Positions 1 to 11,579 of a stretch of 11,579 bases of DNA are shown one piece after another. The position numbers and the translations under genes are program-made. Where the stretch lies: assembly GCA_017609985.1 (NCBI GenBank), contig JAFCCW010000021.1, positions 1 to 11,579 on the forward strand, written 5' to 3'. Position 1 is the stretch's first letter; the number at the start of each line of letters is the position of its first letter. This DNA is from Candidatus Iainarchaeum sp. GTDB lineage: Archaea; Iainarchaeota; Iainarchaeia; Iainarchaeales; JAFCCW01. The notes under the pieces are model-generated. The model saw nothing but the letters and a program-made list of their open reading frames with translations. It ran no database searches and had not been told where the DNA came from.

Positions 1-114
1 TCTGATAGAAAGTATTAAGTTCAACAGGATATATAACATTCAAACGTATCACCGATAAATAGGAGGCACAACCTCCTATTTATCACTGTTTATAAAGGAT
101 TTCTACAGAGCCCA
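1..114. repeat. Left terminal inverted repeat (114 bp)
   Basis: 1-114 is the exact reverse complement of 11466-11579; the match breaks at 115/11465. Confidence 0.97.
54..84. repeat. Perfect palindrome within the left TIR (13-bp arms, 5-nt spacer)
   Basis: GATAAATAGGAGG-CACAA-CCTCCTATTTATC. Confidence 0.95.
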
Positions 115-381
115 TTTCCGCCTGAACGCCTTTTCCAGCCCGGTTAGCGTTTCCAAATCAACTAGTTTTTCTTTCTGCTCGTCGCTTAATACCCCTTGCG
201 CCCTTTCAACCAGCAGGGGCGTAATAACCCTTAAATCCGGTATGCGCTCAAAGCATTCGGCCCTAAACTTTTCCAGGGCCTTTTTACGGTTCTTGGCATA
301 AGTTGTTTGTATGTGGTAACCTTCGACCTTAAACACGCAGGAGAAAGGTTTATTGCCTGACTTTTTTACTTCAAGCACCAT
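103..381 (-). CDS. Hypothetical protein (92 aa)
   Basis: Overlaps the upstream AbrB-like ORF by 11 nt, suggesting translational coupling; no recognised motif; the last 12 nt lie inside the TIR. Confidence 0.6.
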   Translation of the reverse strand: MVLEVKKSGNKPFSCVFKVEGYHIQTTYAKNRKKALEKFRAECFERIPDLRVITPLLVERAQGVLSDEQKEKLVDLETLTGLEKAFRRKWAL

Positions 382-532
382 TAGTTACCAGCTCCTTTAC
401 TATTAGCGCCCGCTTCTCATTAGGCGCAGGATAAACCATTAACTCCGTGCCCTTAGCCCAGCCAAGCAGCTGCACGTACTGCTTAGGCAGGTTAATGAAA
501 AGCGTTTGCTTACCCTGCTGTATTTTTACCAT
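371..532 (-). CDS. AbrB/MazE/SpoVT-family DNA-binding protein (53 aa)
   Basis: MVKIQQGKQTLFINLPKQYVQLLGWAKGTELMV matches the swapped-hairpin pattern (I.LPK.....LG...G..L.V). Start moved from 577 to ATG 532 because GGTG lies just upstream. Confidence 0.8.
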   Translation of the reverse strand: MVKIQQGKQTLFINLPKQYVQLLGWAKGTELMVYPAPNEKRALIVKELVTNGA

Positions 533-629
533 TAAAAAACACCGTACAATCAGTACTCTCATTAATATTATAAGCACGAGGGGACTAACAAGTAGGTAAC
601 CGGGCTAATGGTTTAGTTCATTGGCTAGC

Positions 630-645
630 CCTACCGGGGGCGCTT
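630..645 (+). repeat. att-like core, copy 1 (tRNA 3'-end-like fragment)
   Basis: CCTACCGGGGGCGCTT is identical at 8704-8719 and 10872-10887. It parses as T-stem 3' strand (CCTAC) + acceptor 3' strand (CGGGGGC) + discriminator G, followed by a T-rich tract. Confidence 0.75.
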
Positions 646-708
646 TCTTCTTTTTCAAACGCCCCCCCTCTGCATTTAAATTGGTTTCGGTTGAGGAGGA
701 GAAAAGAT

Positions 709-933
709 ATGAGGGAATACATTCACCCCTATAAACACAACCTGGAGAAGGAAATTCAAAGGGTTAAAGATTCAAAAATGCTTGCATCAAACAAGCAGCT
801 TATTCTGAAATTCTACAAGCACAACATGGCCCAGGAACTCAGCCTGCCAAGAATGGAAAGGCAAACAAGCGTCCTGAGAAAGGTTGCAGAGTGGCAGAAA
901 AAGGTTTTTACGGGTTTGTGTTGCCCAAAGTAA
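709..933 (+). pseudogene. Truncated tyrosine recombinase/integrase, N-terminal fragment only
   Basis: YIHPYKHNLEKEIQRVKDSKMLASNKQLILKFYKHNMAQELSLPRMERQTSVLRKVAEWQKKVF resembles the N-terminus of archaeal tRNA-targeting integrases (NK.LI..F......GLS..R...Y...L...A.W..K.F). GAGGAGG RBS precedes ATG 709. Stops after 74 aa with no catalytic R-H-R-Y domain; lies 64 bp from the att-like core. Confidence 0.7.
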
Positions 934-997
934 CCTTGAATTAAACTTTACGCAAGCAAAAGAAATTGAAGCAAAAAAAGTATTGGAAAAGCTGTTT

Positions 998-2248
998 TTA
1001 GTTTGCTAGTGATATTTCGAAGTTTATTTTTAGCCCTCTCGCAGTTCTTGTGACTTTTTTGTTTTTGGTTGTTACTAGTCCTGCCTTTTTTAGTTTTGTA
1101 ATGTATTGGCTTGTGTTTGATAGTTGCATGTTTATGTCTTTTGCTATTTCCGATATTGTTCTTGTTCCGTTTGCGAGGACGAGTATTTTCATTACGTTTT
1201 CGCTTTTGAGCAATGCGCTGAGTTGCTTTAGCTGCTTTTTTGTTTTCACTGTTTGGAATTGAGGTTCTGGGTCCTCTAAATTTTTCGTTGATTCTTTGGC
1301 TTTTTGCAAGTAGCTGAAAAGGTTATTTGAGAGAGAAGCAGTAATGTTTTCCTTTGATTCGTTTTTGAGGGCTTCCGGCACTTTTTCCAATGGCAAGATC
1401 TTTTTTCCTTTCCGAGTTGTTATCGTTACTTCTGAAAGCAAAGTGTTGAAAACGTTTTTGTAAAGATTCTGTAAGTCTTCTTTTTCAAAATGCCATTTTG
1501 AGACAATCTGGCTTATTTCGCTTACGCTCATACCCCAATGAGGTATTTGGGAATCTATATCTATTCGAGGAATGTCTTTTGAGAGAATTATTAGCGGCCT
1601 TTCAGTGCTTGTAAGGCCTTCGTTGTACATTGCTTTCCTTGTTGCATAGTAAAGCATTTTCCTTTGAGGGGCAGAGTACATGACTTCTATTGGTTTCTTT
1701 TGGTCTTCAGGGTAAAGCTCGTGGAAAAAGTTTGCAAAAAAGACGTCGGCAGGTAGCTGAATTAAGTAGTTCAGCTTTTCATTGAGGTCGTGTTCGTCAA
1801 GGTCCATTAAGCCTAGAACAGAATAGTATTTTGCAAAAAAGGCTTTTTCTTTCTGTTGCATGAATCTAGCCCAGAGTTCGGAAGAGGTGTAAGTATTTAA
1901 GTTGGAAATTCCAAGGGCGTTTGCCAAAGAAGTAATCTCGTCCTTTTTCTTTTTAATGTATTCCTCAGAAGTCAAAGACCGATACTTTTCAAATTCAACT
2001 TTTTTAAAATAAGGGTTTGAAAGGATATTCATATCCCATAAGACAAGCACAACATTAAAGCCGACTTTTGAGAGCTTTGCAAGGTTGAATAAATGGGTTA
2101 ATGTGATATAATTGTATTTAAGGTGAGTTAAAGAGTAAAAAATAGTTGGAGCGCCTTTTCCGGCAGAATTTTCAAGAACAGATTTAAGGGTTTCCCTATC
2201 CTGTGTTGAAACCGTGAAACTATCCAAAGTTTTTGTTATCGCTTCCAT
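998..2248 (-). CDS. Putative transcriptional regulator: degenerate TyrRS-like (class Ic aaRS) domain + C-terminal ArsR-type winged HTH
   Basis: C-terminal MKILVLANGTRTISEIAKDINMQLSNTSQYITKLKKAGLV is a clear wHTH. N-terminal segments LAKLSKVGFNVVLVLWDMN, TYTSSE, LIQLPADV, QRKMLYYATR, PLIILSKDIP and MSVSEISQIV recall archaeal TyrRS in the same order, but HIGH and KMSKS are absent. Confidence 0.75.
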   Translation of the reverse strand: MEAITKTLDSFTVSTQDRETLKSVLENSAGKGAPTIFYSLTHLKYNYITLTHLFNLAKLSKVGFNVVLVLWDMNILSNPYFKKVEFEKYRSLTSEEYIKKKKDEITSLANALGISNLNTYTSSELWARFMQQKEKAFFAKYYSVLGLMDLDEHDLNEKLNYLIQLPADVFFANFFHELYPEDQKKPIEVMYSAPQRKMLYYATRKAMYNEGLTSTERPLIILSKDIPRIDIDSQIPHWGMSVSEISQIVSKWHFEKEDLQNLYKNVFNTLLSEVTITTRKGKKILPLEKVPEALKNESKENITASLSNNLFSYLQKAKESTKNLEDPEPQFQTVKTKKQLKQLSALLKSENVMKILVLANGTRTISEIAKDINMQLSNTSQYITKLKKAGLVTTKNKKVTRTARGLKINFEISLAN

Positions 2249-2269
2249 ATCAGCCCAATTTCCAAAGAC

Positions 2270-2305
2270 TAATAACTTATACTATTACCATAACAAGAGT
2301 TATTA
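2270..2305. promoter_or_regulatory. Candidate operator in the divergent promoter region
   Basis: TAATAACT-N20-AGTTATTA inverted repeat, overlapping a TATA-like TTAAATATATAT (2303-2314) about 30 nt upstream of ATG 2340. Confidence 0.4.
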
Positions 2306-2339
2306 AATATATATCCAATATTAAATAATTAGATAGAAA

Positions 2340-3842
2340 ATGAGTTTTTCATTCCACAGCTCGCAGGAATTTGTAAAAGACATAAACGACAGTTTTTCTT
2401 TCACTGATTTAAAGCCAACTCTGCGCGTAGGCGTAACAGAAAAATGCAACCTCAAATGCCCATACTGCCACAGGGAAGGCATTACAGAAAAATATACAAA
2501 TTACCTTAGCCCCGAAGAATATTCTATAATAGCCAATACATTCCACAGCCTTGGACTATCAAAAGTAAAATTTACCGGCGGAGAGCCCTTGCTTAGAAAA
2601 GACCTTGCCAAAATAGTGCAGGCTTTTATGCAAGCTGGCTTTGAAGACCTTTCTATGATAACAAATGGAACCCTGTTAAACAGGAAAAATCTGCTTGAAC
2701 TCAAAGAAGCAGGTCTTAATAGAATAACAATAAGCTTTGATTCCCTTAAACAAAAGAAAGCAACACAGATTAGCGGATGCGACTGCCTTGAAAAGGTTCT
2801 GGAAAACGTATCTCTTTCAAGAGAGTTCTTTGAAGACGTTAAAGTAAATTGTGTTATTCTGCCAGGAATAAATTTTCCAAGCGAAATACTGGACTTCGCC
2901 AACTTTTGTAGGGACAATGACGTAACCCTCAAATTACTTTCAAGGCTGTCAGATGATACACCCTACCCTTTATGCAGCCAGGCTTTAGTAGAGATAAAAC
3001 TCTATAAACACTTGAAGAGAAAAGAGATCTGCACTGAAGGCGTTGTCCCGGCAACAAAATATTTCTTCTCAGACGGAACAAAGGTAGAAGTAAACGATTT
3101 CAGAAGCAAGGAATACAGACGAATAATAAGCAACAACAAGTCCTGTGAATCCTGTGAACTAAAAGAACAGTGTGTTGAGGGGCCTTACGCAATAAGAGTT
3201 ATGCCTGACGGAGAAATAAAGCCGTGCCTTTTGAAAAAGGATAACACAATCAAATTCCGCAAGGTAACCAAAAGCAGAACAAAACTAATCTGTTTAACTG
3301 GGCTGGCCAGTTCAGGAAAAAGCAATTTCACGAAAACAGCAGAAAACATGTTTAACATCAAAAACGTTTACGTTGGAAAAATTCTAAAAGACAAAGCAGG
3401 GGAAACACATGCAAAACCCACTTATGATAATGTAATGACTGTAAGCAAAGAAATTTACAAAGAGAAAGGCCCTTTGGGAACAATTTTAGAAAGCTTCCAT
3501 GCAACTCAGGGAAATATCACAGATGAAAAAGTAATTATACTTGATTCTGTTAGGAGCGTTGAAGAATACAATTTCCTCAAACAGTTCTTCAAAACATACC
3601 TTGTAGGCGTAATCTGCAACAGGAGTGAGAGATTCAAAAGGGCAAAAAAAGGATACTTTAAATTAACAAAAGACCAGCTAATAAAAAGAGACAAGCTCGA
3701 ATTGGGGGAAGAAAATGACGAACCCTCATTCAACATCGGAGAACTTTTAGGACACGTTGATTACTACATTTTAGGCGAATCACAAAACTTCAAACAGGAA
3801 ACAGCAGAAATAATAAAGGCGATAATGAATGATAGAAGTTGA
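2340..3842 (+). CDS. MoaA-like radical SAM enzyme fused to a C-terminal P-loop NMP/dephospho-CoA-kinase-like (UPF0200-like) domain
   Basis: rSAM motifs LRVGVTEKCNLKCPYC (CxxxCxxC), KFTGGEPLLR, ITNG, ISFDSL, VKVN and CESC...IRVMPDGEIKPCL. From about aa 315: LICLTGLASSGKS (Walker A), ILDSVRSVEE, RFKR, RDKLELG, VDYYI. Confidence 0.88.
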   Translation: MSFSFHSSQEFVKDINDSFSFTDLKPTLRVGVTEKCNLKCPYCHREGITEKYTNYLSPEEYSIIANTFHSLGLSKVKFTGGEPLLRKDLAKIVQAFMQAGFEDLSMITNGTLLNRKNLLELKEAGLNRITISFDSLKQKKATQISGCDCLEKVLENVSLSREFFEDVKVNCVILPGINFPSEILDFANFCRDNDVTLKLLSRLSDDTPYPLCSQALVEIKLYKHLKRKEICTEGVVPATKYFFSDGTKVEVNDFRSKEYRRIISNNKSCESCELKEQCVEGPYAIRVMPDGEIKPCLLKKDNTIKFRKVTKSRTKLICLTGLASSGKSNFTKTAENMFNIKNVYVGKILKDKAGETHAKPTYDNVMTVSKEIYKEKGPLGTILESFHATQGNITDEKVIILDSVRSVEEYNFLKQFFKTYLVGVICNRSERFKRAKKGYFKLTKDQLIKRDKLELGEENDEPSFNIGELLGHVDYYILGESQNFKQETAEIIKAIMNDRS

Positions 3843-4374
3843 AATCAGAACGATTGTAGGCAATTCTGAAGAAGCAGGAAAAAAGCTGCAAAAATATCCC
3901 CTAATTAAAAACAAGATGCAGACGGATGAATACTTTTCTCATCCTTCAAGGGACTTTTACGCAAACCCTATTCTGAGAGAGTATGTAAGAATAAGGCATG
4001 GCAAAAACCCTACTTTTGAGTACCACAAAGCCCACATAAAAAACGGGAAAAAGACACACTCAGAAGAATTTGAAGTGGCAATAGAAGACGTTAAAAAAAT
4101 GAAGGGAATACTTGAACAGCTTGGATTCAAACCATTTGTAACAGTTAAAAAAGCAAGAAAAACATTTGACTGCGGAAAATTTGAAGCATGCCTTGATACA
4201 ATAGAATCCCTTGGCACTTTCTTGGAAATAGAGGCAAAAGAAAACCTTGGCGGAATAGAAAAAACAAGGCAGGAATGCATAAATTTTCTGAAAAAACTTG
4301 AAATAGAATATGTTCCTGCACCCGACAAAGGCTATCCGGACATGCTTGCCGAAAAAATTACACCAAAACAATAA
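3829..4374 (+). CDS. cyaB: CYTH-domain protein (class IV adenylate cyclase/triphosphate tunnel metalloenzyme family)
   Basis: MIEVEIR (ExExK/R), QTDEYF, VRIR, EEFEV, LGF....VKKAR, LDTIESLGTFLEIE, GYPDML; overlaps the upstream gene by 14 nt. Confidence 0.9.
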   Translation: MIEVEIRTIVGNSEEAGKKLQKYPLIKNKMQTDEYFSHPSRDFYANPILREYVRIRHGKNPTFEYHKAHIKNGKKTHSEEFEVAIEDVKKMKGILEQLGFKPFVTVKKARKTFDCGKFEACLDTIESLGTFLEIEAKENLGGIEKTRQECINFLKKLEIEYVPAPDKGYPDMLAEKITPKQ

Positions 4375-4449
4375 CCAAGCAAAAAAGGCAGAAAACGCCG
4401 ACTAATTCTATAACTAATAATAAAAAGGTCAAGCGAAGAAAGTCATTGA

Positions 4450-4531
4450 GCAGGTGCTTTCCTGCCTGGCTTTAATAGCTCGGGATTGCACCTGCAACCA
4501 GTCAACCACCAGGTTGAAAAAAAATCAACCA
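4450..4531 (+). other. Structured intergenic element (possible cis-regulatory RNA or operator)
   Basis: GCAGGTGC (4450-4457) pairs with GCACCTGC (4488-4495); GGTTGA (4512-4517) is complementary to TCAACC at both 4502-4507 and 4525-4530. Confidence 0.4.
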
Positions 4532-4576
4532 GAAGTATTTGGATAAAAACAAAGCAGAAGTTATTGGGTGAATGAA

Positions 4577-5095
4577 ATGGAACAGCAAGCACTAGAACTA
4601 AAGAAAATTTTCAACGGGATGATTGATAGTTTTGGATTAAACCATGCTCGAGTATACTATATCCTTATTTCAAGCGAAGTAAAAACAGCAAAGCAATTGG
4701 TTCAGGAAACAGGGATCAACCAGGCCACTGTTTACGCCGTTCTGCGTGAGCTCATAAAATGGGATCTAATCCAACAAAGCAACACAAATCCTGCAAGCTA
4801 TTATATTGGAAACCCAATGAAAACATTTGAAAAGCAGGTAAGAAAAAAGGAAAAAATAATTACCGGAAAAAGGAAGCTGCTTGAAGATCTGATTGCTTCA
4901 GATGTTGACGAAAGCGAAAAGTACTTGATTAAAATTGGCAAAGGAGAACAGACAAAACTAGTAAATGTTCTAACGAATAAAGAACTGCGTTATAGAGAGG
5001 AGATGGTTAAGGTTAGAGATAGTTTGGATAAAATGTTGAGAGCTGCCCCGGTTAAGGAAAAAGTTAGCCCTCTTTATTCAACCTACAGGAAATAA
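4577..5095 (+). CDS. TrmB-family transcriptional regulator (wHTH with short C-terminal region)
   Basis: FGLNHARVYYILISSEVKTAKQLVQETGINQATVYAVLRELIKWDLI...NPASYY..NP is a typical TrmB HTH. GGTGA RBS (4567-4571) favours ATG 4577 over GTG 4568. Confidence 0.88.
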   Translation: MEQQALELKKIFNGMIDSFGLNHARVYYILISSEVKTAKQLVQETGINQATVYAVLRELIKWDLIQQSNTNPASYYIGNPMKTFEKQVRKKEKIITGKRKLLEDLIASDVDESEKYLIKIGKGEQTKLVNVLTNKELRYREEMVKVRDSLDKMLRAAPVKEKVSPLYSTYRK

Positions 5096-5118
5096 TTTCA
5101 AAAAAGGAGGTTAACACA

Positions 5119-6444
5119 ATGAAGAGTTCAATATACAATATTTTTGTTCCAACCAAAGACAGTTCAAAGTTTGTTGCATACAACACCCTCAGAGGTAGCA
5201 CAACTATTGTAAACGACGAAGTAAAAAAAGCAATCCAAGGCAATAACTTGCCAGATGATAAAAAATTGTTGGAAAAACTGCAAAAAACTAACCTGGTTGT
5301 TGATGATGAGTCCGATGAAAAAAACCTTTGCAAATACCTCCACAACAAGCACAAGTTTGACAACAGCTACCAGCACTTTTGCGTTATCATTACATATGAC
5401 TGCAATTTCCGCTGCCCCTACTGCTATCAGGGAGCTGACAAAAACAAACACCCTATTTCAGAGGAAATGCTTGAAAAAGTCATAAAATGCATTAAGCGCA
5501 CATGCAAGGAAAGAAAAGCCAAAGACCTTGAAGTCACCTTGTACGGCGGCGAACCATTTATGTTCCCAAAAAAATGCAAAAAGCTTGTTGAAGAAACAAG
5601 CCAATGGGCAAAAGAGAATAACATAATATTCCACTTAAGCGTACTGACAAACGGATCCCTTATAACAAAAGAAATAGCTGAATGGCTCTCAGATTACAAG
5701 GCAAGAATACAGATACCGCTTGACGGATACAAAACAGTTCACGACAAGTACAGATACCACATAGGAAAAAACAAAGGATCATACGAAGACCTCATGCAAA
5801 CATTCAACTATTTTAAGGGAACAGACGCAAGCATTCATCTAAGAATAAGCGTAACAAAAGAAACATATCCAACAATGGGAAAAATGCTTGATGACCTAAA
5901 AGCAAGAGGCCTAACACATTTGCACCCAGACTTTTGTTACATTACAGCGTTTGTTGAAGCATGCAATAGCTTTAGCCCATACTGCCTAAAAGATTCTGAA
6001 CTCTACTCCGTTCTGCCAGAGTTGTGGAAAATGTCAAGAGAAAAAGGCTTCAAAACAGATATGTTGAAACCACAGGTGTCGCCACTGCCCTGTAGCAGCA
6101 TAGCAGACGGAAGCTATGTAATAGACCCAACGGGAAACATTTACAAGTGCTGGGAACTGGTAATACAAAAAGAGCACATCGTGGGAAGAATACTTGACAA
6201 TGGAAAAATGGAACTAACGCCAAAATACTTCGAAACTCTTAGCAGAGACCCAAGTACAATAGAAGACTGTGAAAAATGCAAGTTTCTGCCAGCCTGTTCA
6301 GGAGGGTGCATCTGCAAAGCATGCTGGAACAAAGGAACATACCAAGCAAGTGGTTGTGGAACAGTCAAATTCCTGTTGGTTGAACAACTAAAAGCATACC
6401 TTTTGCAAGAGTACCCAGAAACGTTTAAAACATTACTCGAGTAG
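5119..6444 (+). CDS. Radical SAM/SPASM-domain protein, probable RiPP maturase
   Basis: CNFRCPYC, YGGEP, LTNG, QIPLDG..VHDKYR. SPASM motifs PCSS...IDPTGNIYKCW and CEKCKFLPACSGGC (Cx2Cx5Cx3C). An ~80-aa N-terminal extension (SIYNIFV...YNTLRGS...LEKLQKTNLVV) resembles that of peptide maturases. AGGAGG RBS. Confidence 0.92.
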   Translation: MKSSIYNIFVPTKDSSKFVAYNTLRGSTTIVNDEVKKAIQGNNLPDDKKLLEKLQKTNLVVDDESDEKNLCKYLHNKHKFDNSYQHFCVIITYDCNFRCPYCYQGADKNKHPISEEMLEKVIKCIKRTCKERKAKDLEVTLYGGEPFMFPKKCKKLVEETSQWAKENNIIFHLSVLTNGSLITKEIAEWLSDYKARIQIPLDGYKTVHDKYRYHIGKNKGSYEDLMQTFNYFKGTDASIHLRISVTKETYPTMGKMLDDLKARGLTHLHPDFCYITAFVEACNSFSPYCLKDSELYSVLPELWKMSREKGFKTDMLKPQVSPLPCSSIADGSYVIDPTGNIYKCWELVIQKEHIVGRILDNGKMELTPKYFETLSRDPSTIEDCEKCKFLPACSGGCICKACWNKGTYQASGCGTVKFLLVEQLKAYLLQEYPETFKTLLE

Positions 6445-6452
6445 GTGATACA

Positions 6453-6542
6453 ATGGAAAAGAACCAAAAAGCAAAATTTGAAATTGAGGTCATTGAAGAA
6501 AAATCAAAGCCAAAAATTTCACACTGCTTTGTACTAGTATAA
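6453..6542 (+). CDS. Small ORF (29 aa, MEKNQKAKFEIEVIEEKSKPKISHCFVLV), candidate RiPP precursor peptide
   Basis: Absent from the ORF track. AGGTGAT RBS overlaps the rSAM stop codon; ATG 6453 to TAA 6542 fills the gap between the rSAM and MBL genes; charged leader-like N-terminus and Cys-containing hydrophobic tail. Confidence 0.8.
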   Translation: MEKNQKAKFEIEVIEEKSKPKISHCFVLV

Positions 6543-6555
6543 AAAGTTGAATTGT

Positions 6556-7452
6556 ATGGAACTCAAAAAAATAGATGAGAACATTTCCTACATACCAAAT
6601 CCGTCAAACATAGGAATAATTCAAAATGGAAATAACTGCATACTAATAGATACTGGTTTAGACGCAGATACAGGGAAAAAAATCCTGAAACTCCTTGAAG
6701 AAAACCATCTAAAAGTAAAAGCCATTATCAACACACATGCCCACGCAGACCACTATGGAGGAAACAACACAATCAAAAACAAAACAAAATGCTTAACCTA
6801 TGCGCCAAAAATAGAAGCAAGCACTATAGAAAATCCAATCCTTGAACCCCAAAGCTTCTTTTCGGGGGCCAATCCAATAAAAGAACTAAAAAACAAGTTT
6901 CTAATGGCCGAACCATGCAAAGTAGACCATCAAATTGAAGGTACTGAACTAGAAATAAACGGCCTTTCACTAAAACCAATACAATTACCAGGGCACTCAA
7001 TAAACCAAACAGGCATTGCATTCAACAACAACCTTTTCTGTGCAGACAGCTTCTTCTCAAAAGAAACAATACAAAAACACAAAATCCTCTTCTTTACAAA
7101 CATAGAAGAAACCAAAAAAACACTCAACAAACTAAAAGAAACAAATTACAAATCATACATACCAAGCCACCTGGAACCGATAAGCAACTCAGAAAATCTT
7201 ATTAACGAAAACCTGAAGGCAATAGAAAAAACAGAAACGGACATTTTGGAAACACTGCAAGAAGAAAAAGACATTGAACAAACACTCAAAGACTTAAGCG
7301 ACAAAACAGAAATAAAAATAAAAACAATACAGCAGCACTACTTGCTCAAAACTACAATACTCGCCTACCTTGAATACCTCAACAAAAACAAGCAAGTTGA
7401 AATTAAAACAGAAAACAACAGACTAACCTGGAAAAAGAATACCACCGGCTAA
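6556..7452 (+). CDS. Metallo-beta-lactamase-fold hydrolase
   Basis: ILIDTG, THAHADH (HxHxDH), PGHS, ADS and PSH motifs; ATG 6556 preferred to TTG 6547. Confidence 0.93.
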   Translation: MELKKIDENISYIPNPSNIGIIQNGNNCILIDTGLDADTGKKILKLLEENHLKVKAIINTHAHADHYGGNNTIKNKTKCLTYAPKIEASTIENPILEPQSFFSGANPIKELKNKFLMAEPCKVDHQIEGTELEINGLSLKPIQLPGHSINQTGIAFNNNLFCADSFFSKETIQKHKILFFTNIEETKKTLNKLKETNYKSYIPSHLEPISNSENLINENLKAIEKTETDILETLQEEKDIEQTLKDLSDKTEIKIKTIQQHYLLKTTILAYLEYLNKNKQVEIKTENNRLTWKKNTTG

Positions 7453-7457
7453 AGGCT

Positions 7458-7994
7458 CTATTTCTTCTTTTCATCAACAGAAAAAGAAGCAACCTTGCCA
7501 CCACTCAACCTCAAAACATCACTAACCTGAAGACGCACAAGCTTTGACCTCGAACCACCGCCACACCAAACAGTCTTACGCCTAACAATCCCCCTATCAA
7601 TAAAAGTGGGCATCTTTCTCTTATGCCCAATAGGAGGAACACCCCCTGTAGGAAAACCAGAAGCCCTCTCAGCAACCTCAACAGGAGCAGTCTTCACAGA
7701 CTTAAAACCAGTAACCTTCTGCAAAAGATGCCTATTGACCTGAAGATCAGCCCTCAAAACAGCCACAAAAGGCTTATCAAACTCATTAACAAAGACAAGC
7801 GTCTTAGCAAAACTCTTCAAAGGAATGCCAGTAACTCTCGAAGCCTCAACCGCATGCTTAGTAACCTTCTTAGACAAAAACTCACAAGCAACATGATTCC
7901 TAATAAGAAAAGCCTTCAAATTAGACCTGGGCGAAACTCTCTTAACCTTAGGCGTAGGCCTTACTCTAACAGCTTTCTTCTTGTGAACAACCAC
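7458..7994 (-). CDS. YbaK/ProX-family aminoacyl-tRNA deacylase (editing domain)
   Basis: FAKTLVF (conserved Lys), SGFPTGGVPPIG (GxxxP), FID, VWCGGGS. AGGTG RBS favours GTG 7994 over 8003. Confidence 0.9.
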   Translation of the reverse strand: MVVHKKKAVRVRPTPKVKRVSPRSNLKAFLIRNHVACEFLSKKVTKHAVEASRVTGIPLKSFAKTLVFVNEFDKPFVAVLRADLQVNRHLLQKVTGFKSVKTAPVEVAERASGFPTGGVPPIGHKRKMPTFIDRGIVRRKTVWCGGGSRSKLVRLQVSDVLRLSGGKVASFSVDEKKK

Positions 7995-8099
7995 AAAAAA
8001 CACCTATAACAAAATAGTGATTTTCAACTTATTAATCCTTTTGAAAAAACCAAAAAACATTATTAGAGGAAAAAACAAGTAAAATAAGGAGAAACATAA

Positions 8100-8566
8100 A
8101 TGAGCCTAACAAGAAAAGCAATAGTAGTAGCCGGAATAATAGTAAACCAAAAGTGTGAAGTTCTGATAGTCCAAAGAAACCCAAACGAAAAAAACTACGC
8201 AAACAAATGGGAGCTCCCAAGCGGAAAAGTGGACCCAGGCGAAACAATAAAACAGGCATTCGAAAGAGAAGTACTTGAAGAAACAGGGCTAAAAGTAAAA
8301 CTCTCCTCAATAAGATGGCCAACAAGTCAATTCAAATACACAATTCAAGGCAGAACAGAAACAAGGATAACAACACAAAAAACTACCTAATAGAACTAGC
8401 AAACCCAAAACAAGTAAAACTCAGCCCAGAACACGTAAAGTTCGCATGGGTAAAACCAAGCAACCTACAAAAATACGACTTAATAGAAGGCTTGCCAAAG
8501 GTCATAGCAACAGGATACAAAAGACTAGCAAAAAGAAAAAAGATTAGAGCAGTAGAAAAAAAATAG
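8100..8566 (+). pseudogene. Nudix hydrolase split by a 1-nt frameshift
   Basis: The Nudix box GKVDPGETIKQAFEREVLEETGL is in 8100-8390, and the C-terminal VKLSPEHVKFAWV motif is in the -1 frame (to 8566). One extra base near the A6 run at 8377-8382 restores a ~155-aa protein. Confidence 0.82.
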
Positions 8567-8617
8567 TCCGACCAATCAAAAGAGCCCCAAGAAGAAAAAT
8601 CTAATTTAACAGATAAA

Positions 8618-8719
8618 TTAATTAACAACCTTGCACTATACTGTTTCTGCATAATAAATTCAGCCGGCCAATGCATGGGCGGCGTTTGATTTTGAAGATG
8701 AAGCCTACCGGGGGCGCTT
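8618..8719 (+). repeat. 102-bp direct repeat ending in att-like core copy 2
   Basis: Gapless alignment to 10786-10887 with 11 mismatches by manual count. Confidence 0.93.
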
Positions 8720-8736
8720 GTTACCTATATGGTAAC
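8720..8736. promoter_or_regulatory. Palindrome upstream of the antitoxin gene (candidate operator or recombinase site)
   Basis: GTTACC-TATAT-GGTAAC directly abuts core 2 and ends 32 nt before ATG 8769. Confidence 0.4.
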
Positions 8737-8768
8737 CTTTTTATTCTTTTCTTGCCCTATATATTAGT

Positions 8769-9413
8769 ATGACTAAGTCATTGACAGGGCAGGAATTCTC
8801 CTTGTATAGCTTATTGTTCTTGAAGTTTGGAAGCAAGCAGTTTGGTTTGGATAGTGTGCGCTGGTACTTTAGCAAACAGACTTTGAAGAAGTTAATTTTT
8901 AATTTGGTTAAATCAGGCTGGTTAAAAAGAGCTGGCAGAGGAGTTTATGCCTGCATTGCCCCAAGAGAAGCGGTAAGCGCCTTGTTTGAACCAAAGGTTG
9001 AGAAAACATTGCAGGAATCCAAGTTGAGTTACTGCTTTACAAAAGCCAGTGCTGCTGAAGTCTGGAGCAACGAAACTTACATTCAGAGAAGCTGGGAGTA
9101 CAGCCCGTTTTTCGTAAAGGTTTTGAGGAAGGAATTGGGTAAGTGGAAGCAGTTTTTGGATTCAAGAGAAGTAAAGTTTTTTGTTAAAAAGCCATCAAAC
9201 ACCATTGGAGAATTTGTCGTATTGGTTCCAGTTGCTTCAATGAAAATAGATTTTCATGACAGGAAGCCTGTTGAGGCATTGCAGGAAACGATTGCGTTTT
9301 GTGAGGCAAACAAGGACAGCTTTGAATACGTCTTGGCCTACTTGTCCAACAAATACAAGAAGAAAACCTCTGCGTCAAAAGAAATGTTGATTAAGGCGAG
9401 GGAAGCATTATGA
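8769..9413 (+). CDS. AbiEi-like type IV TA antitoxin (N-terminal wHTH)
   Basis: LKKLIFNLVKSGWLKRAGRGVY matches the AbiEi-type wHTH (L.K.G.L.R..RG.Y); ATGA overlap with a downstream nucleotidyltransferase. Confidence 0.7.
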   Translation: MTKSLTGQEFSLYSLLFLKFGSKQFGLDSVRWYFSKQTLKKLIFNLVKSGWLKRAGRGVYACIAPREAVSALFEPKVEKTLQESKLSYCFTKASAAEVWSNETYIQRSWEYSPFFVKVLRKELGKWKQFLDSREVKFFVKKPSNTIGEFVVLVPVASMKIDFHDRKPVEALQETIAFCEANKDSFEYVLAYLSNKYKKKTSASKEMLIKAREAL

Positions 9414-10093
9414 TTTTTGAGGAAAGAGAAAAATTCATTTTTTCACTGCTTGAGGGACTAAAAGGCAGAGTTGACTTCGTTGTAATCGGAGGCTATGCAA
9501 TTAACGCTTACACCCTGCCTCGTTTTTCAGTAGACTGTGACCTTGTAGTCAAAGACAAGAAAGCAATGCTTGCAGTCAAAAAAATCCTTGAAACCAATGG
9601 CTTTGCCAAAAAAGCAACAGGTACTTTGCCAGGCTACAAGGGAGAATTCCTCTGCCTTGCAACAAAAAAGCCCGTTATTACAACTTTTGATATTCTGGCT
9701 AGCAACGTTGAAGACAGAATTACTGGAACAATGTTTCCAGCAGAACTCATCTTCAAGAATTCCACAAAAAGAACAATCTTTGGCAAAGGCAGCCCTACAA
9801 AAATTGAAACAAGGGTAGCAGATGCCGAAATGCTTTTCGTGATGAAAGCAGTCAGCTGCAGGAAGCCAGATATCAGGGACGTGTTTATGCTGGCTTCAAC
9901 AAAGCTTGACAAGGAAAAGATTTTGCAAATAACAAAGGAGGTTCCAATTCCGGCAGAAAGCATTGAAAAGATTACCTCAAAAGTTAACTCAAAAGGATTC
10001 AAGGACGCACTACAAGGGGTCTTTGGAATGCTTCCAGAAAAGCAATTTGAAACAAGCAAAAAGAAACTGCTCGCTTTGCTGAAGGGTGTTTAA
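9410..10093 (+). CDS. AbiEii-like Pol-beta superfamily nucleotidyltransferase (type IV TA toxin)
   Basis: FVVIGGYAINAY..PRFSVDCDLVV (GG.A...R.S.DxD) and MKAVSCRKPDIRD (K....R..D..D). Confidence 0.82.
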   Translation: MIFEEREKFIFSLLEGLKGRVDFVVIGGYAINAYTLPRFSVDCDLVVKDKKAMLAVKKILETNGFAKKATGTLPGYKGEFLCLATKKPVITTFDILASNVEDRITGTMFPAELIFKNSTKRTIFGKGSPTKIETRVADAEMLFVMKAVSCRKPDIRDVFMLASTKLDKEKILQITKEVPIPAESIEKITSKVNSKGFKDALQGVFGMLPEKQFETSKKKLLALLKGV

Positions 10094-10139
10094 ACAACGC
10101 CAAAACAATATTAAACAGGATATAACAACAATTGCTTAG

Positions 10140-10754
10140 ATGACCGAAACAAAAGAGGAAATAGGCAACTGCAAAAAGTGTGATAAGATAATTGGCGGAC
10201 ACAATATTTACCTCCATGAGGGTTTTTGTGACAAGTGTTTTTTTGAAGAGTTTTTCCCAGAACCAGATCATGAAAAAGCAAAAAAGGAAATAGAATTCCA
10301 AAGAAGCCATTTAAAACCAGAGCTTCAAAAGTTTCTTGGAAAAAACGAGTCTTTCTTTGAAGAAAAATATGGCTTGAAAAAATATTTTGAAATCCTTGTT
10401 GAAAACAAAAAGGCAATACAATTCGCGTTTTGGATTATCCAACAGGCAAAAACAGAAAAATTTGTCCTTTTCACACTTTACGATGGCATCATAACAAACG
10501 CATCAGAAATTTACAAAAAAGATATTGGAGAAAACTTTCTGAAGACAAAGATTTTTGAAGAATGTGAAGAGATACATACTTCGCAATCACTTATAGATCT
10601 TCAATCGTTTTACATGTTTTCTGGCGAAGGCATGATTTTCTTATCAACAAACAAACAATTGTCAGAAATCATTGAAAGAACAGCAAAAGAACTGAAACTT
10701 GAATACACAGTGGATGAAACTAAAGACTTTGCCAGGCCTGCAGAAAATCATTGA
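10140..10754 (+). CDS. Hypothetical protein with N-terminal Zn-ribbon (Cx2C-x15-Cx2C)
   Basis: CKKC-DKIIGGHNIYLHEGF-CDKC; 204-aa ORF on the same strand as the TA pair. Confidence 0.75.
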   Translation: MTETKEEIGNCKKCDKIIGGHNIYLHEGFCDKCFFEEFFPEPDHEKAKKEIEFQRSHLKPELQKFLGKNESFFEEKYGLKKYFEILVENKKAIQFAFWIIQQAKTEKFVLFTLYDGIITNASEIYKKDIGENFLKTKIFEECEEIHTSQSLIDLQSFYMFSGEGMIFLSTNKQLSEIIERTAKELKLEYTVDETKDFARPAENH

Positions 10755-10785
10755 AGTGAAAACTAATTCGCTACAAACCAGTGCT

Positions 10786-10887
10786 TTAATTAACAACCTT
10801 GCACTTTATAGTTTCTGTATAAAAAATTCAGCCGGCCAATAAGAGGCAGGCGTTTGATTTTGAAGATGAAGCCTACCGGGGGCGCTT
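10786..10887 (+). repeat. 102-bp direct repeat ending in att-like core copy 3
   Basis: About 89% identical to 8618-8719; shares 20 bp (CCTACCGGGGGCGCTTTCTT) with copy 1; followed by a T-tract. Confidence 0.93.
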
Positions 10888-10897
10888 TCTTTTTTTC

Positions 10898-11386
10898 TTA
10901 GTTTTTGAATCTGGGGCCTGTGACCTTTTTTTTCTTTTTCCAGTCTATTGCAATTGAGACCAGCCACAGGATGTTTATTATGGCAAAGGCTACTGCAACA
11001 AGATCTAGCATTCTCCATTCATTGGTGAATCCAAAAAAGAAGGAAAGAAGGCCTGCGAAAAAAGTTGCTACTGCTTTTGTTTTCTGTTTTTTGTAAATCG
11101 CAAAAGCTGTTATAAAGTCAAATGTTCCCAGCAAAAACAAGACAATTCCATTGATTAAGTTTAGGATCATAAACCCTGCTAAAAACAGAACCATTTTTAT
11201 CAAATCTGGCTCTGGAAGGGGTGGCCCAATACCTGACATGGAAACAAAAGAAAAGGCTACAAACAGGATTACTACAATTAAAAGGGAAAAAAACAACAAG
11301 GTCAAAAGCATGGATTTTGCCAGCAGTTTTTTAACTTTTGAAAGTTCTTTTTCCTCACTTTGCTTTTTTTGTGCCAAGGCATTCAC
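10898..11386 (-). CDS. Hypothetical integral membrane protein (about 4 TM helices)
   Basis: Four long hydrophobic segments with Lys-rich N-terminus, loop and C-terminus. Confidence 0.78.
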   Translation of the reverse strand: MNALAQKKQSEEKELSKVKKLLAKSMLLTLLFFSLLIVVILFVAFSFVSMSGIGPPLPEPDLIKMVLFLAGFMILNLINGIVLFLLGTFDFITAFAIYKKQKTKAVATFFAGLLSFFFGFTNEWRMLDLVAVAFAIINILWLVSIAIDWKKKKKVTGPRFKN

Positions 11387-11465: not shown

Positions 11466-11579
11466 TGGGCTCTGTAGAAATCCTTTATAAACAGTGATAA
11501 ATAGGAGGTTGTGCCTCCTATTTATCGGTGATACGTTTGAATGTTATATATCCTGTTGAACTTAATACTTTCTATCAGA
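11466..11579. repeat. Right terminal inverted repeat (114 bp; palindrome at 11496-11526)
   Basis: Exact reverse complement of 1-114. Confidence 0.97.

Follow-up and report, generated by a model that had tools for sequence, protein, structure and literature searches.

A probable tandem stack of decayed integrative elements behind the tRNA-Asn(GTT) gene of a Candidatus Iainarchaeum genome

Introduction

In tandem islands at tRNA genes (tDNAs), as described for Islander, displaced 3' fragments of the cognate tRNA gene mark the island ends (Hudson, Lau & Williams 2015, PMC4383910). Here we examine an arrangement of this kind in an 11,579-nt stretch of DNA from Candidatus Iainarchaeum sp. (assembly GCA_017609985.1, contig JAFCCW010000021.1), hereafter the window. 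The window is the entire contig C11 of a metagenome-assembled genome of 1.16 Mb in 37 contigs (G000), and it carries three copies of a short repeat, the core, that delimit two gene modules, B (8.07 kb) and C (2.17 kb). An earlier note, made from the sequence of the window, had proposed that the cores are tRNA-derived attachment (att) sites next to a dead integrase, and that integrase-less modules accumulate there as on an integron-style gene-capture platform mobilised in trans. The comparison with related genomes reported here makes it likely that the window is part of an integration hotspot behind the genome's single tRNA-Asn(GTT) gene and holds a tandem stack of decayed integrative elements.

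Three further descriptions are relevant. Streptococcal cis-mobilizable elements (CIMEs) and their site-specific accretion involve elements that keep their att sites without recombination genes, and a resident integrase can in principle excise such a tandem in several ways (PMC5704250). In the tycheposons of Prochlorococcus, a partial tRNA lies between neighbouring elements, older elements are displaced outward by newcomers, and broken integrases and additional partial tRNAs are scattered through the island (bioRxiv 10.1101/2020.12.28.424599). The review 'Archaeal tyrosine recombinases' states that several elements can integrate in tandem at one locus (PMC8371274).

The locus shares with the Islander islands a tyrosine integrase acting at the 3' part of a tRNA gene (T-stem/acceptor att), a regenerated tRNA and a tandem array at one tDNA. 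The Islander approach looks for an intact tRNA whose 3' end is identical to the fragment, which is present here, and for an integrase in every member; here, in contrast, the tRNA-proximal member alone has one, followed by a 66-codon stump and then by none. The host, moreover, is a DPANN-type archaeon, and the tRNA and its fragments lie on separate contigs. As in CIMEs, attL and attR are kept, recombination genes are lost and a newcomer enters at the att site with the tRNA end, but conjugation genes are absent here and the host is archaeal. Tycheposons are likewise cargo-carrying, tRNA-targeting tyrosine-recombinase elements in outward-pushed layers; they belong to a different host domain, and a long right arm conserved across tRNA targets is unmentioned in the available part of that source. 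Archaeal elements with non-partitioning integrases resemble those considered here in that the integrase gene is whole when integrated and lies beside the tRNA; the word 'DPANN' has 0 occurrences in the text of the review. A search of titles and abstracts returned no paper on the present element family in these archaea.

Results

Three cores in the window match the 3' end of tRNA-Asn(GTT)

The sequence CCTACCGGGGGCGCTT occurs three times on the + strand of the window, starting at 630, 8704 and 10872, with 0 mismatches and spacings of 8074 and 2168 nt; the three cores thus share one (direct) orientation. The count expected by chance for this 16-mer is 0.01, and three or more matches were found in 0 of 200 shuffles. 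The first 13 nt of the core have four copies in the whole 1.16-Mb genome, namely the three in the window and one at the 3' end of a tRNA-Asn(GTT) gene on contig C37 (35021-35094; 3' end CCTACCGGGGGCG), the sole tRNA-Asn among the 38 tRNA genes found. These 13 nt comprise the 3' strands of the T-stem and of the acceptor stem, together with the discriminator base. The window itself contains no tRNA gene (tRNA gene search), and its cores are displaced 3' ends of tRNA-Asn(GTT). Among 60 relatives the 13-mer was found in G041 only, because close relatives are few.

The earlier note had read the core as a tRNA 3' end and left the isotype open; the search for a host tRNA ending in the core confirms the reading and supplies the isotype, Asn. 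Two details of it have to be given up. The GAAG before the core, taken as T-loop, stands where the tRNA has TTCAAAT, so that the tRNA-derived part is only 13 nt long, and the tRNA begins with GCCCCTG rather than the predicted GCCCCCG.

On C37 the order is FtsZ upstream, then tRNA-Asn, a left arm like that of the window, and an integrase open reading frame (ORF), at least 367 aa long and cut off by the contig end, which matches the tyrosine recombinase catalytic domain PF00589 with 73.5 bits (cutoff 27.1). The corresponding features of the window are the following (G041 and the other G numbers below denote relatives).

630..642, + strand: core 1, displaced 13-nt tRNA-Asn(GTT) 3' end (the 16-nt identity reaches 645)
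643..708, + strand: left (integrase-proximal) arm, aligning with the tRNA-Asn/integrase junction of C37
709..933, + strand: integrase remnant, about 66-70 homologous N-terminal codons, then unrelated residues and a stop
8618..8703, + strand: arm 2, the right arm of module B, with the sequence that is conserved at the right ends of this element family
8704..8716, + strand: core 2, at the junction of module B with DNA that in G041 lies directly behind tRNA-Asn
10786..10871, + strand: right arm of module C (arm 3), recognised by the repeat and by arm matches in relatives
10872..10884, + strand: core 3, a displaced tRNA-Asn 3' end and the outermost of the three, an exact 16-mer match

Cores 2 and 3 belong to a longer direct repeat of 102 nt (8618-8719 and 10786-10887, 89% identity), which consists of the 86-nt arm and the 16-nt core. 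A diverged arm upstream of core 1 was considered and rejected: the 100 nt preceding this core match arm 2 at 37 positions, where 100 shuffles gave 35.5 +/- 6.5. The left arm (643..708) contains TCTTCTTTTTCAAACGCC, the inverted complement of a part of the right arm, as well as a TTTAAAT box and GGAGG. Rfam gave four weak matches in the window at E<=1, none of them in arms or cores.

A family of integrative elements ends in the same arm

The relatives comprised 196 genomes of the order, which were searched with a 92-nt arm by BLAST. The arm is present in 13 of them, including 9 of the 23 genomes of one family, often in multiple copies per genome, and the copies adjoin differing tRNA-tail cores. 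Three complete elements were delimited, all with the same order: tRNA, integrase, cargo, an arm of about 86 nt and a 13-14-nt copy of the tRNA tail (direct repeat, DR).

G041:C3, at tRNA-Ser(tga): 23,057 nt between tails; integrase 79% identical to the window remnant, arm 88% identical, exact 13-nt DR
G041:C18, at tRNA-Arg(gcg): 4,239 nt; integrase, TrmB-like gene, arm, 14-nt DR
G113:C84, behind tRNA-Thr(cgt): 7,664 nt; exact 13-nt DRs enclose an integrase (63% identical to that of C37) and the arm

The repeats of the G113:C84 element lie 0.78 kb behind tRNA-Thr(cgt) and differ from the tail of this tRNA at one base. G041 carries related integrases 66-70 nt behind tRNA-Ser(tga) and tRNA-Arg(gcg), and a remnant with three stops behind tRNA-Ser(gga). 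The earlier note's expectation that the arm flanks variable cargo in related genomes is thus borne out, both by the search across the order and by the complete elements, and these elements also support its proposal that the array arose by repeated insertion, at one site, of elements with tRNA-targeting tyrosine integrases. That note had also named two outcomes that would speak against it, namely a host without a tRNA matching the core and an arm that never flanks variable cargo; both were checked and neither was found.

In alignments judged by eye, the distal ~50 nt of the arm (TTAATTAAC..CCTTGCACTATA..TTCAGCC) are near-constant, and the core-proximal ~35 nt vary with the tRNA target. The proximal part includes GGCGTTTGATTTTGAAGA, the inverted complement of a part of the left arm. 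A TrmB-like gene upstream of the arm is also shared among elements, and an ORF of ~135 aa lies between this gene and the arm in G041:C18 and G106:C45.

Further traces of tRNA tails and arms were noticed in the host genome. An exact tRNA-Leu(cag) tail lies just before an integrase N-terminal remnant (C24:6276), a tRNA-Gln(ctg) tail repeat lies 93 nt from its own gene (C36:4024), and there are three more arm copies (C21:27795-27837, C3:2945-2991 and C24:793-889), one of them followed by a tRNA-Leu-like tail. C33 opens with 41 nt (1-41) that are nearly identical (38/41 by eye) to the 3' end of the C37 integrase gene, and large genes follow; this contig may represent either the body of the element nearest the tRNA or a strain variant.

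Two observations concern small units in relatives. In G106:C67 (1874-3780) two arms lie 1.79 kb apart, each followed by a tRNA-Asn core with one mismatch. Between them lie an ORF of 78 aa, a PIN-domain protein and an ORF of 294 aa; the unit is small and integrase-less and holds a pair resembling a toxin-antitoxin system. In G068:C21 and G110:C9 another short arm (TTTAACTRATTG plus ~8 nt) precedes tRNA-tail fragments beside an AbiE-like operon, an indication that other families of the order have a second type of arm.

Module C lies directly behind tRNA-Asn in a related genome

Module C extends over 2,168 nt from core 2 to core 3, and there is no integrase among its profile matches. Its features are listed here.

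8720..8736, + strand: palindrome GTTACCTATATGGTAAC, left edge of the AbiE-like operon, in relatives kept 2-5 nt after the preceding DNA
8769-9413, + strand: AbiEi-like protein, 214 aa
9410-10093, + strand: AbiEii-like nucleotidyltransferase, 227 aa
10140-10754, + strand: 204-aa protein, no assigned function

AbiE is a type IV toxin-antitoxin system, with AbiEii as nucleotidyltransferase toxin and AbiEi, encoded upstream, as antitoxin and regulator. The AbiEii-like protein of the window scores slightly below the PF08843 cutoff (21.8 against 22.5 bits), all 14 of its 14 homologues match the family at E<=0.01 (best 5.7e-7), and the comparison with PDB 8an4 gives E 0.0065. For the AbiEi-like protein, AbiEi_4 gave 19.7 bits (cutoff 25) and was matched by 3 of 14 homologues, and the PADLOC AbiEi model gave E 3e-4. 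The conserved palindrome upstream would fit an autoregulated AbiE operon.

In G041 the AbiEi, AbiEii and 204-aa genes lie directly behind tRNA-Asn, with FtsZ upstream as on C37, and the synteny extends over 2,066 nt at 82.7% nucleotide identity (window 8704-10732). The same tRNA-Asn/AbiE junction is occupied by arm and core in the window and in G106:C45, where a related TrmB-like gene stands before the arm and the cargo differs. Judged by this synteny, the tRNA-Asn locus of G041 is an empty site for module B. The earlier note had placed the 2.17-kb module among the units accumulating on a gene-capture platform; since it adjoins tRNA-Asn in G041, it is better seen as the probable oldest layer, not a recently captured cassette.

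The neighbour of the AbiE operon was recorded at 11 loci of relatives. It is tRNA-Asn at one, arm plus Asn core at one, tRNA-Ser(gga) at one, another tRNA-tail-like sequence at two, and nothing tRNA-like at six. In G133:C16 the AbiE pair stands alone between the tRNA-Ser(gga) tail and an 11/13 repeat 1,519 nt further on. G068:C21 has three tRNA-tail-like copies at intervals of 1,444 and 1,463 nt. The AbiE pair lies between the second and the third, and a shared short arm, unlike that of the window, stands before each fragment; ARAGORN found no complete tRNA on this contig, and the first copy is a T-arm-plus-acceptor fragment.

The integrase remnant and the integrase class

Positions 709-918 encode 70 residues, 55 of which (79%) are identical to the N-terminus of the 398-aa integrase of the G041:C3 element, the intact homologue that the earlier note had suggested looking for. 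The identity to the integrase beside tRNA-Asn on C37 of the same genome is 45% over 67 aa. Homology ends near codon 66, and Pfam matched no family and no catalytic domain in the remnant, in agreement with the earlier view that the integrase following copy 1 is dead; its catalytic domain is deleted. In the C37 integrase, by comparison, the PF00589 domain is complete.

The best NCBIfam match of the integrase is XerA_Arch (92.6 bits against a cutoff of 220), and the IntI-type model TIGR02249 gave 39 bits against a cutoff of 265. Self-partitioning of the SSV type was considered and rejected: the start codon follows the core at a distance of ~66-70 nt, and the integrated elements of G041 and G113 have whole ORFs, so the gene is not split by integration and therefore not of this type. 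The class is presumably the one called 'pNOB8-type' (non-partitioning).

Cargo of module B

Module B extends from core 1 to core 2 (8,074 nt). Behind the integrase remnant, profile searches identified the following genes.

998-2248, - strand: winged helix-turn-helix protein
2340-3842: MoaA-like radical SAM domain fused to an AAA_18 kinase-like domain
3829-4374: CYTH protein
4568-5095: TrmB-like regulator, common to the elements of G041:C3, G041:C18 and G106:C45
5119-6444: radical SAM/SPASM maturase-like protein
6547-7452: metallo-beta-lactamase (MBL) hydrolase
7458-8003, - strand: YbaK-type editing domain
8100-8566: NUDIX, in two frames

The left end of the module (654-908), with its left arm and the beginning of the integrase, has 80% nucleotide identity to that of the G041:C3 element. 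The two also have in common the TrmB-like gene (75%) and their right arm (88.5%), and the cargo is otherwise different. On these sequence grounds module B is a member of the family that has lost the body of its integrase and carries cargo of its own.

The region 2340-4374 matches the PADLOC models for viperin (E 1e-22) and viperin-kinase (E 4e-13), and MoaA models reach 191 bits, below cutoff; this part of the cargo may have a nucleotide-modifying defence function. The closest model for the radical SAM/SPASM enzyme behind the TrmB-like gene is CefB, a maturase of 'Cys-every-fifth' peptides, which it matches with 336 bits (cutoff 600). At the end of the module the NUDIX frames 8100-8390 and 8315-8566 overlap, with a NUDIX match in the first part only, and the gene is probably frameshifted.

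Contig ends and flanks

The outermost parts of the window hold two copies of the end of an insertion sequence (IS) and a few further genes.

1..114, - strand: outward-facing IS end that includes a terminal repeat of 16 nt (97-112) and the start of the transposase gene (~17 codons)
103..577, - strand: two overlapping ORFs of 92 aa and 68 aa, presumed right part of the element upstream of core 1
10898..11386, - strand: gene of a 162-aa membrane protein, presumed flank beyond the array
11466..11579, + strand: second copy of the IS end, inverted and outward, a 114-nt, 100% inverted repeat with 1..114

The 16-nt terminal repeat is GGATTTCTACAGAGCC. The length of 114 nt is the k-1 overlap of the assembler, and seven other contig pairs overlap by exactly 114. 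The IS end was found in 35 of the 196 genomes, frequently at contig ends, and in G142 it belongs to a 988-bp unit with a DDE_Tnp_1 transposase. The IS is about 1 kb long and multicopy across the order, and the end seen here is the one nearest its transposase gene. The inverted repeat is therefore an IS end of k-1 length, and its reading as the terminus of a linear plasmid or virus was rejected. With outward IS copies at both ends, an 11.35-kb block is bracketed as in a composite transposon. The ORFs in 103..577 have no match in Pfam, NCBIfam, PADLOC or PHROG, and a homologue of the 162-aa membrane protein is absent at the G041 locus.

Discussion

It is likely that the window represents part of an integration hotspot behind the single tRNA-Asn(GTT) gene, occupied by a tandem stack of decayed integrative elements. 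In the mechanism we propose, a tyrosine integrase would recombine an element into the last 13 nt of the tRNA gene; the element's own 13-nt copy would restore the tRNA, with the integrase gene starting ~66-70 nt further on, and at the far end the conserved ~86-nt arm would abut the displaced original 13 nt. Each newcomer would enter at the regenerated tRNA and shift older elements outward, giving the order tRNA-Asn, element A (with the C37 integrase), core 1, module B, core 2, module C, core 3, flank. C would then be the oldest layer, B the next, and the integrase-bearing element of C37 the one nearest to the tRNA. The att sites are kept on both sides of B (cores at 630 and 8704) and of C (8704 and 10872), and no catalytic integrase domain lies between them; the modules are best described as CIME-like remnants, predicted not to recombine on their own. 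The arm may carry putative sites for the integrase or an accessory protein, the resident integrase could still excise B or C, and the toxin-antitoxin genes might help the remnants to persist.

Several observations weigh against this interpretation. The tRNA-Asn gene and the array lie on separate contigs, C37 and C11, and the window stands between two inverted IS copies; contiguity with the tRNA and orientation towards it are therefore taken from the synteny with G041. The right end of element A is unproven, the family arm being absent upstream of core 1. At the position of arm 3, G041 has a degenerate arm-like stretch (28/42 nt by eye) and no core; an old integrated element is not the sole reading of module C. 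Exact searches with a 25-mer arm/core word gave 0 matches in genome_contigs and 0 in viral_contigs, and a 20-mer had two exact matches in metagenome_contigs, both in unrelated high-GC coding DNA without a tRNA.

The most substantial alternative is that integrase-less units of cargo, arm and core are real mini-elements, captured at tRNA genes and moved in trans by the integrases of elements resident beside them, like integron cassettes or satellites. We regard this as unlikely, and the broader proposal built on it, in which a modular att site (a constant ~50-nt distal arm that the entire integrase family recognises, and a swappable core-proximal part fitting the tRNA target) and very small integrase-less hitch-hikers, typically a toxin-antitoxin pair with an arm, inserted and excised at tRNA genes by resident integrases, would form a tRNA-based cassette system functionally parallel to integrons, as similarly doubtful. 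Mini-elements would explain why the AbiE-like pair stands alone between tRNA-tail repeats at other tRNAs (G133:C16 and G068:C21), why the left edge of its operon lies within 2-5 nt of a tRNA or tail at 5 of the 11 relatives' loci and in the window, and why two copies of arm and core surround a PIN-domain gene in G106:C67; the cores are also identical at 16 of 16 positions in all three copies while the arms differ by 11%. Yet the operon is without a tRNA-like neighbour at the other six loci, no empty site for module C was seen among the relatives, and the integrase remnant of module B points to an element that was once autonomous. Simple hopping of one cassette is excluded by the cores, which differ among tRNA targets. 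Toxin-antitoxin genes, furthermore, are expected to outlast deletional decay, with the same resulting picture, so that the small AbiE units could equally be mini-elements moved in trans or decay survivors kept because the loss of a toxin-antitoxin system is costly.

The analogy with integrons itself holds in part: integrons too consist of arrayed units that each end in a recombination-site repeat, and toxin-antitoxin cargo occurs in them. The integron-style platform suggested by the earlier note is nevertheless not supported. A tRNA gene serves as the target, and the integrase is not IntI. The modules comprise several genes each and bring regulatory sequences of their own, and at least one of them once had an integrase as well. 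Folding of arm plus core on both strands gave z between -0.89 and +0.94 relative to 200 shuffles, that is, no attC-like or other stable hairpin, which also speaks against a cassette reading of the arms.

A local segmental duplication, or homologous recombination, is a very improbable source of the repeated arm and core compared with separate integrations. The window has just two arm copies, direct and 2.17 kb apart, as a duplication would leave them, but the DNA beside the two copies is unrelated, and divergent arms stand next to identical cores. In other genomes, moreover, the same arm closes complete elements that are DR-bounded and sit at other tRNAs, and the independent assembly G106:C45 shows the same arm-core-AbiE junction. 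There is hardly any probability left for an assembly or binning artefact, that is, a chimeric or foreign contig. The fragmented, metagenome-assembled origin of the genome and contig ends that are k-1 overlaps inside a multicopy IS invite the suspicion, and the junctions at core 1 and core 3 are without independent confirmation. Against it, the core 2 junction and module C recur in two other genomes, tRNA-Asn on C37 and the G041 locus of module C share a syntenic FtsZ flank, and the GC content of 0.38 is within the range of the genome.

A tandem stack of decayed elements at tRNA-Asn is thus the preferred reading, and as such it is an ordinary tandem island of known kind that leaves the current understanding of such islands unchanged. 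What the locus adds is a precisely delimited integrative-element family for ultra-small archaea, whose mobile elements are little described, with three complete reference elements, at least five tRNA targets and an end signature of ~86 nt. With the arm as a marker, the borders of islands can be mapped in fragmented genomes from metagenomes, and the family offers a natural series in which one integrase family switches its tRNA target while the arm stays constant.

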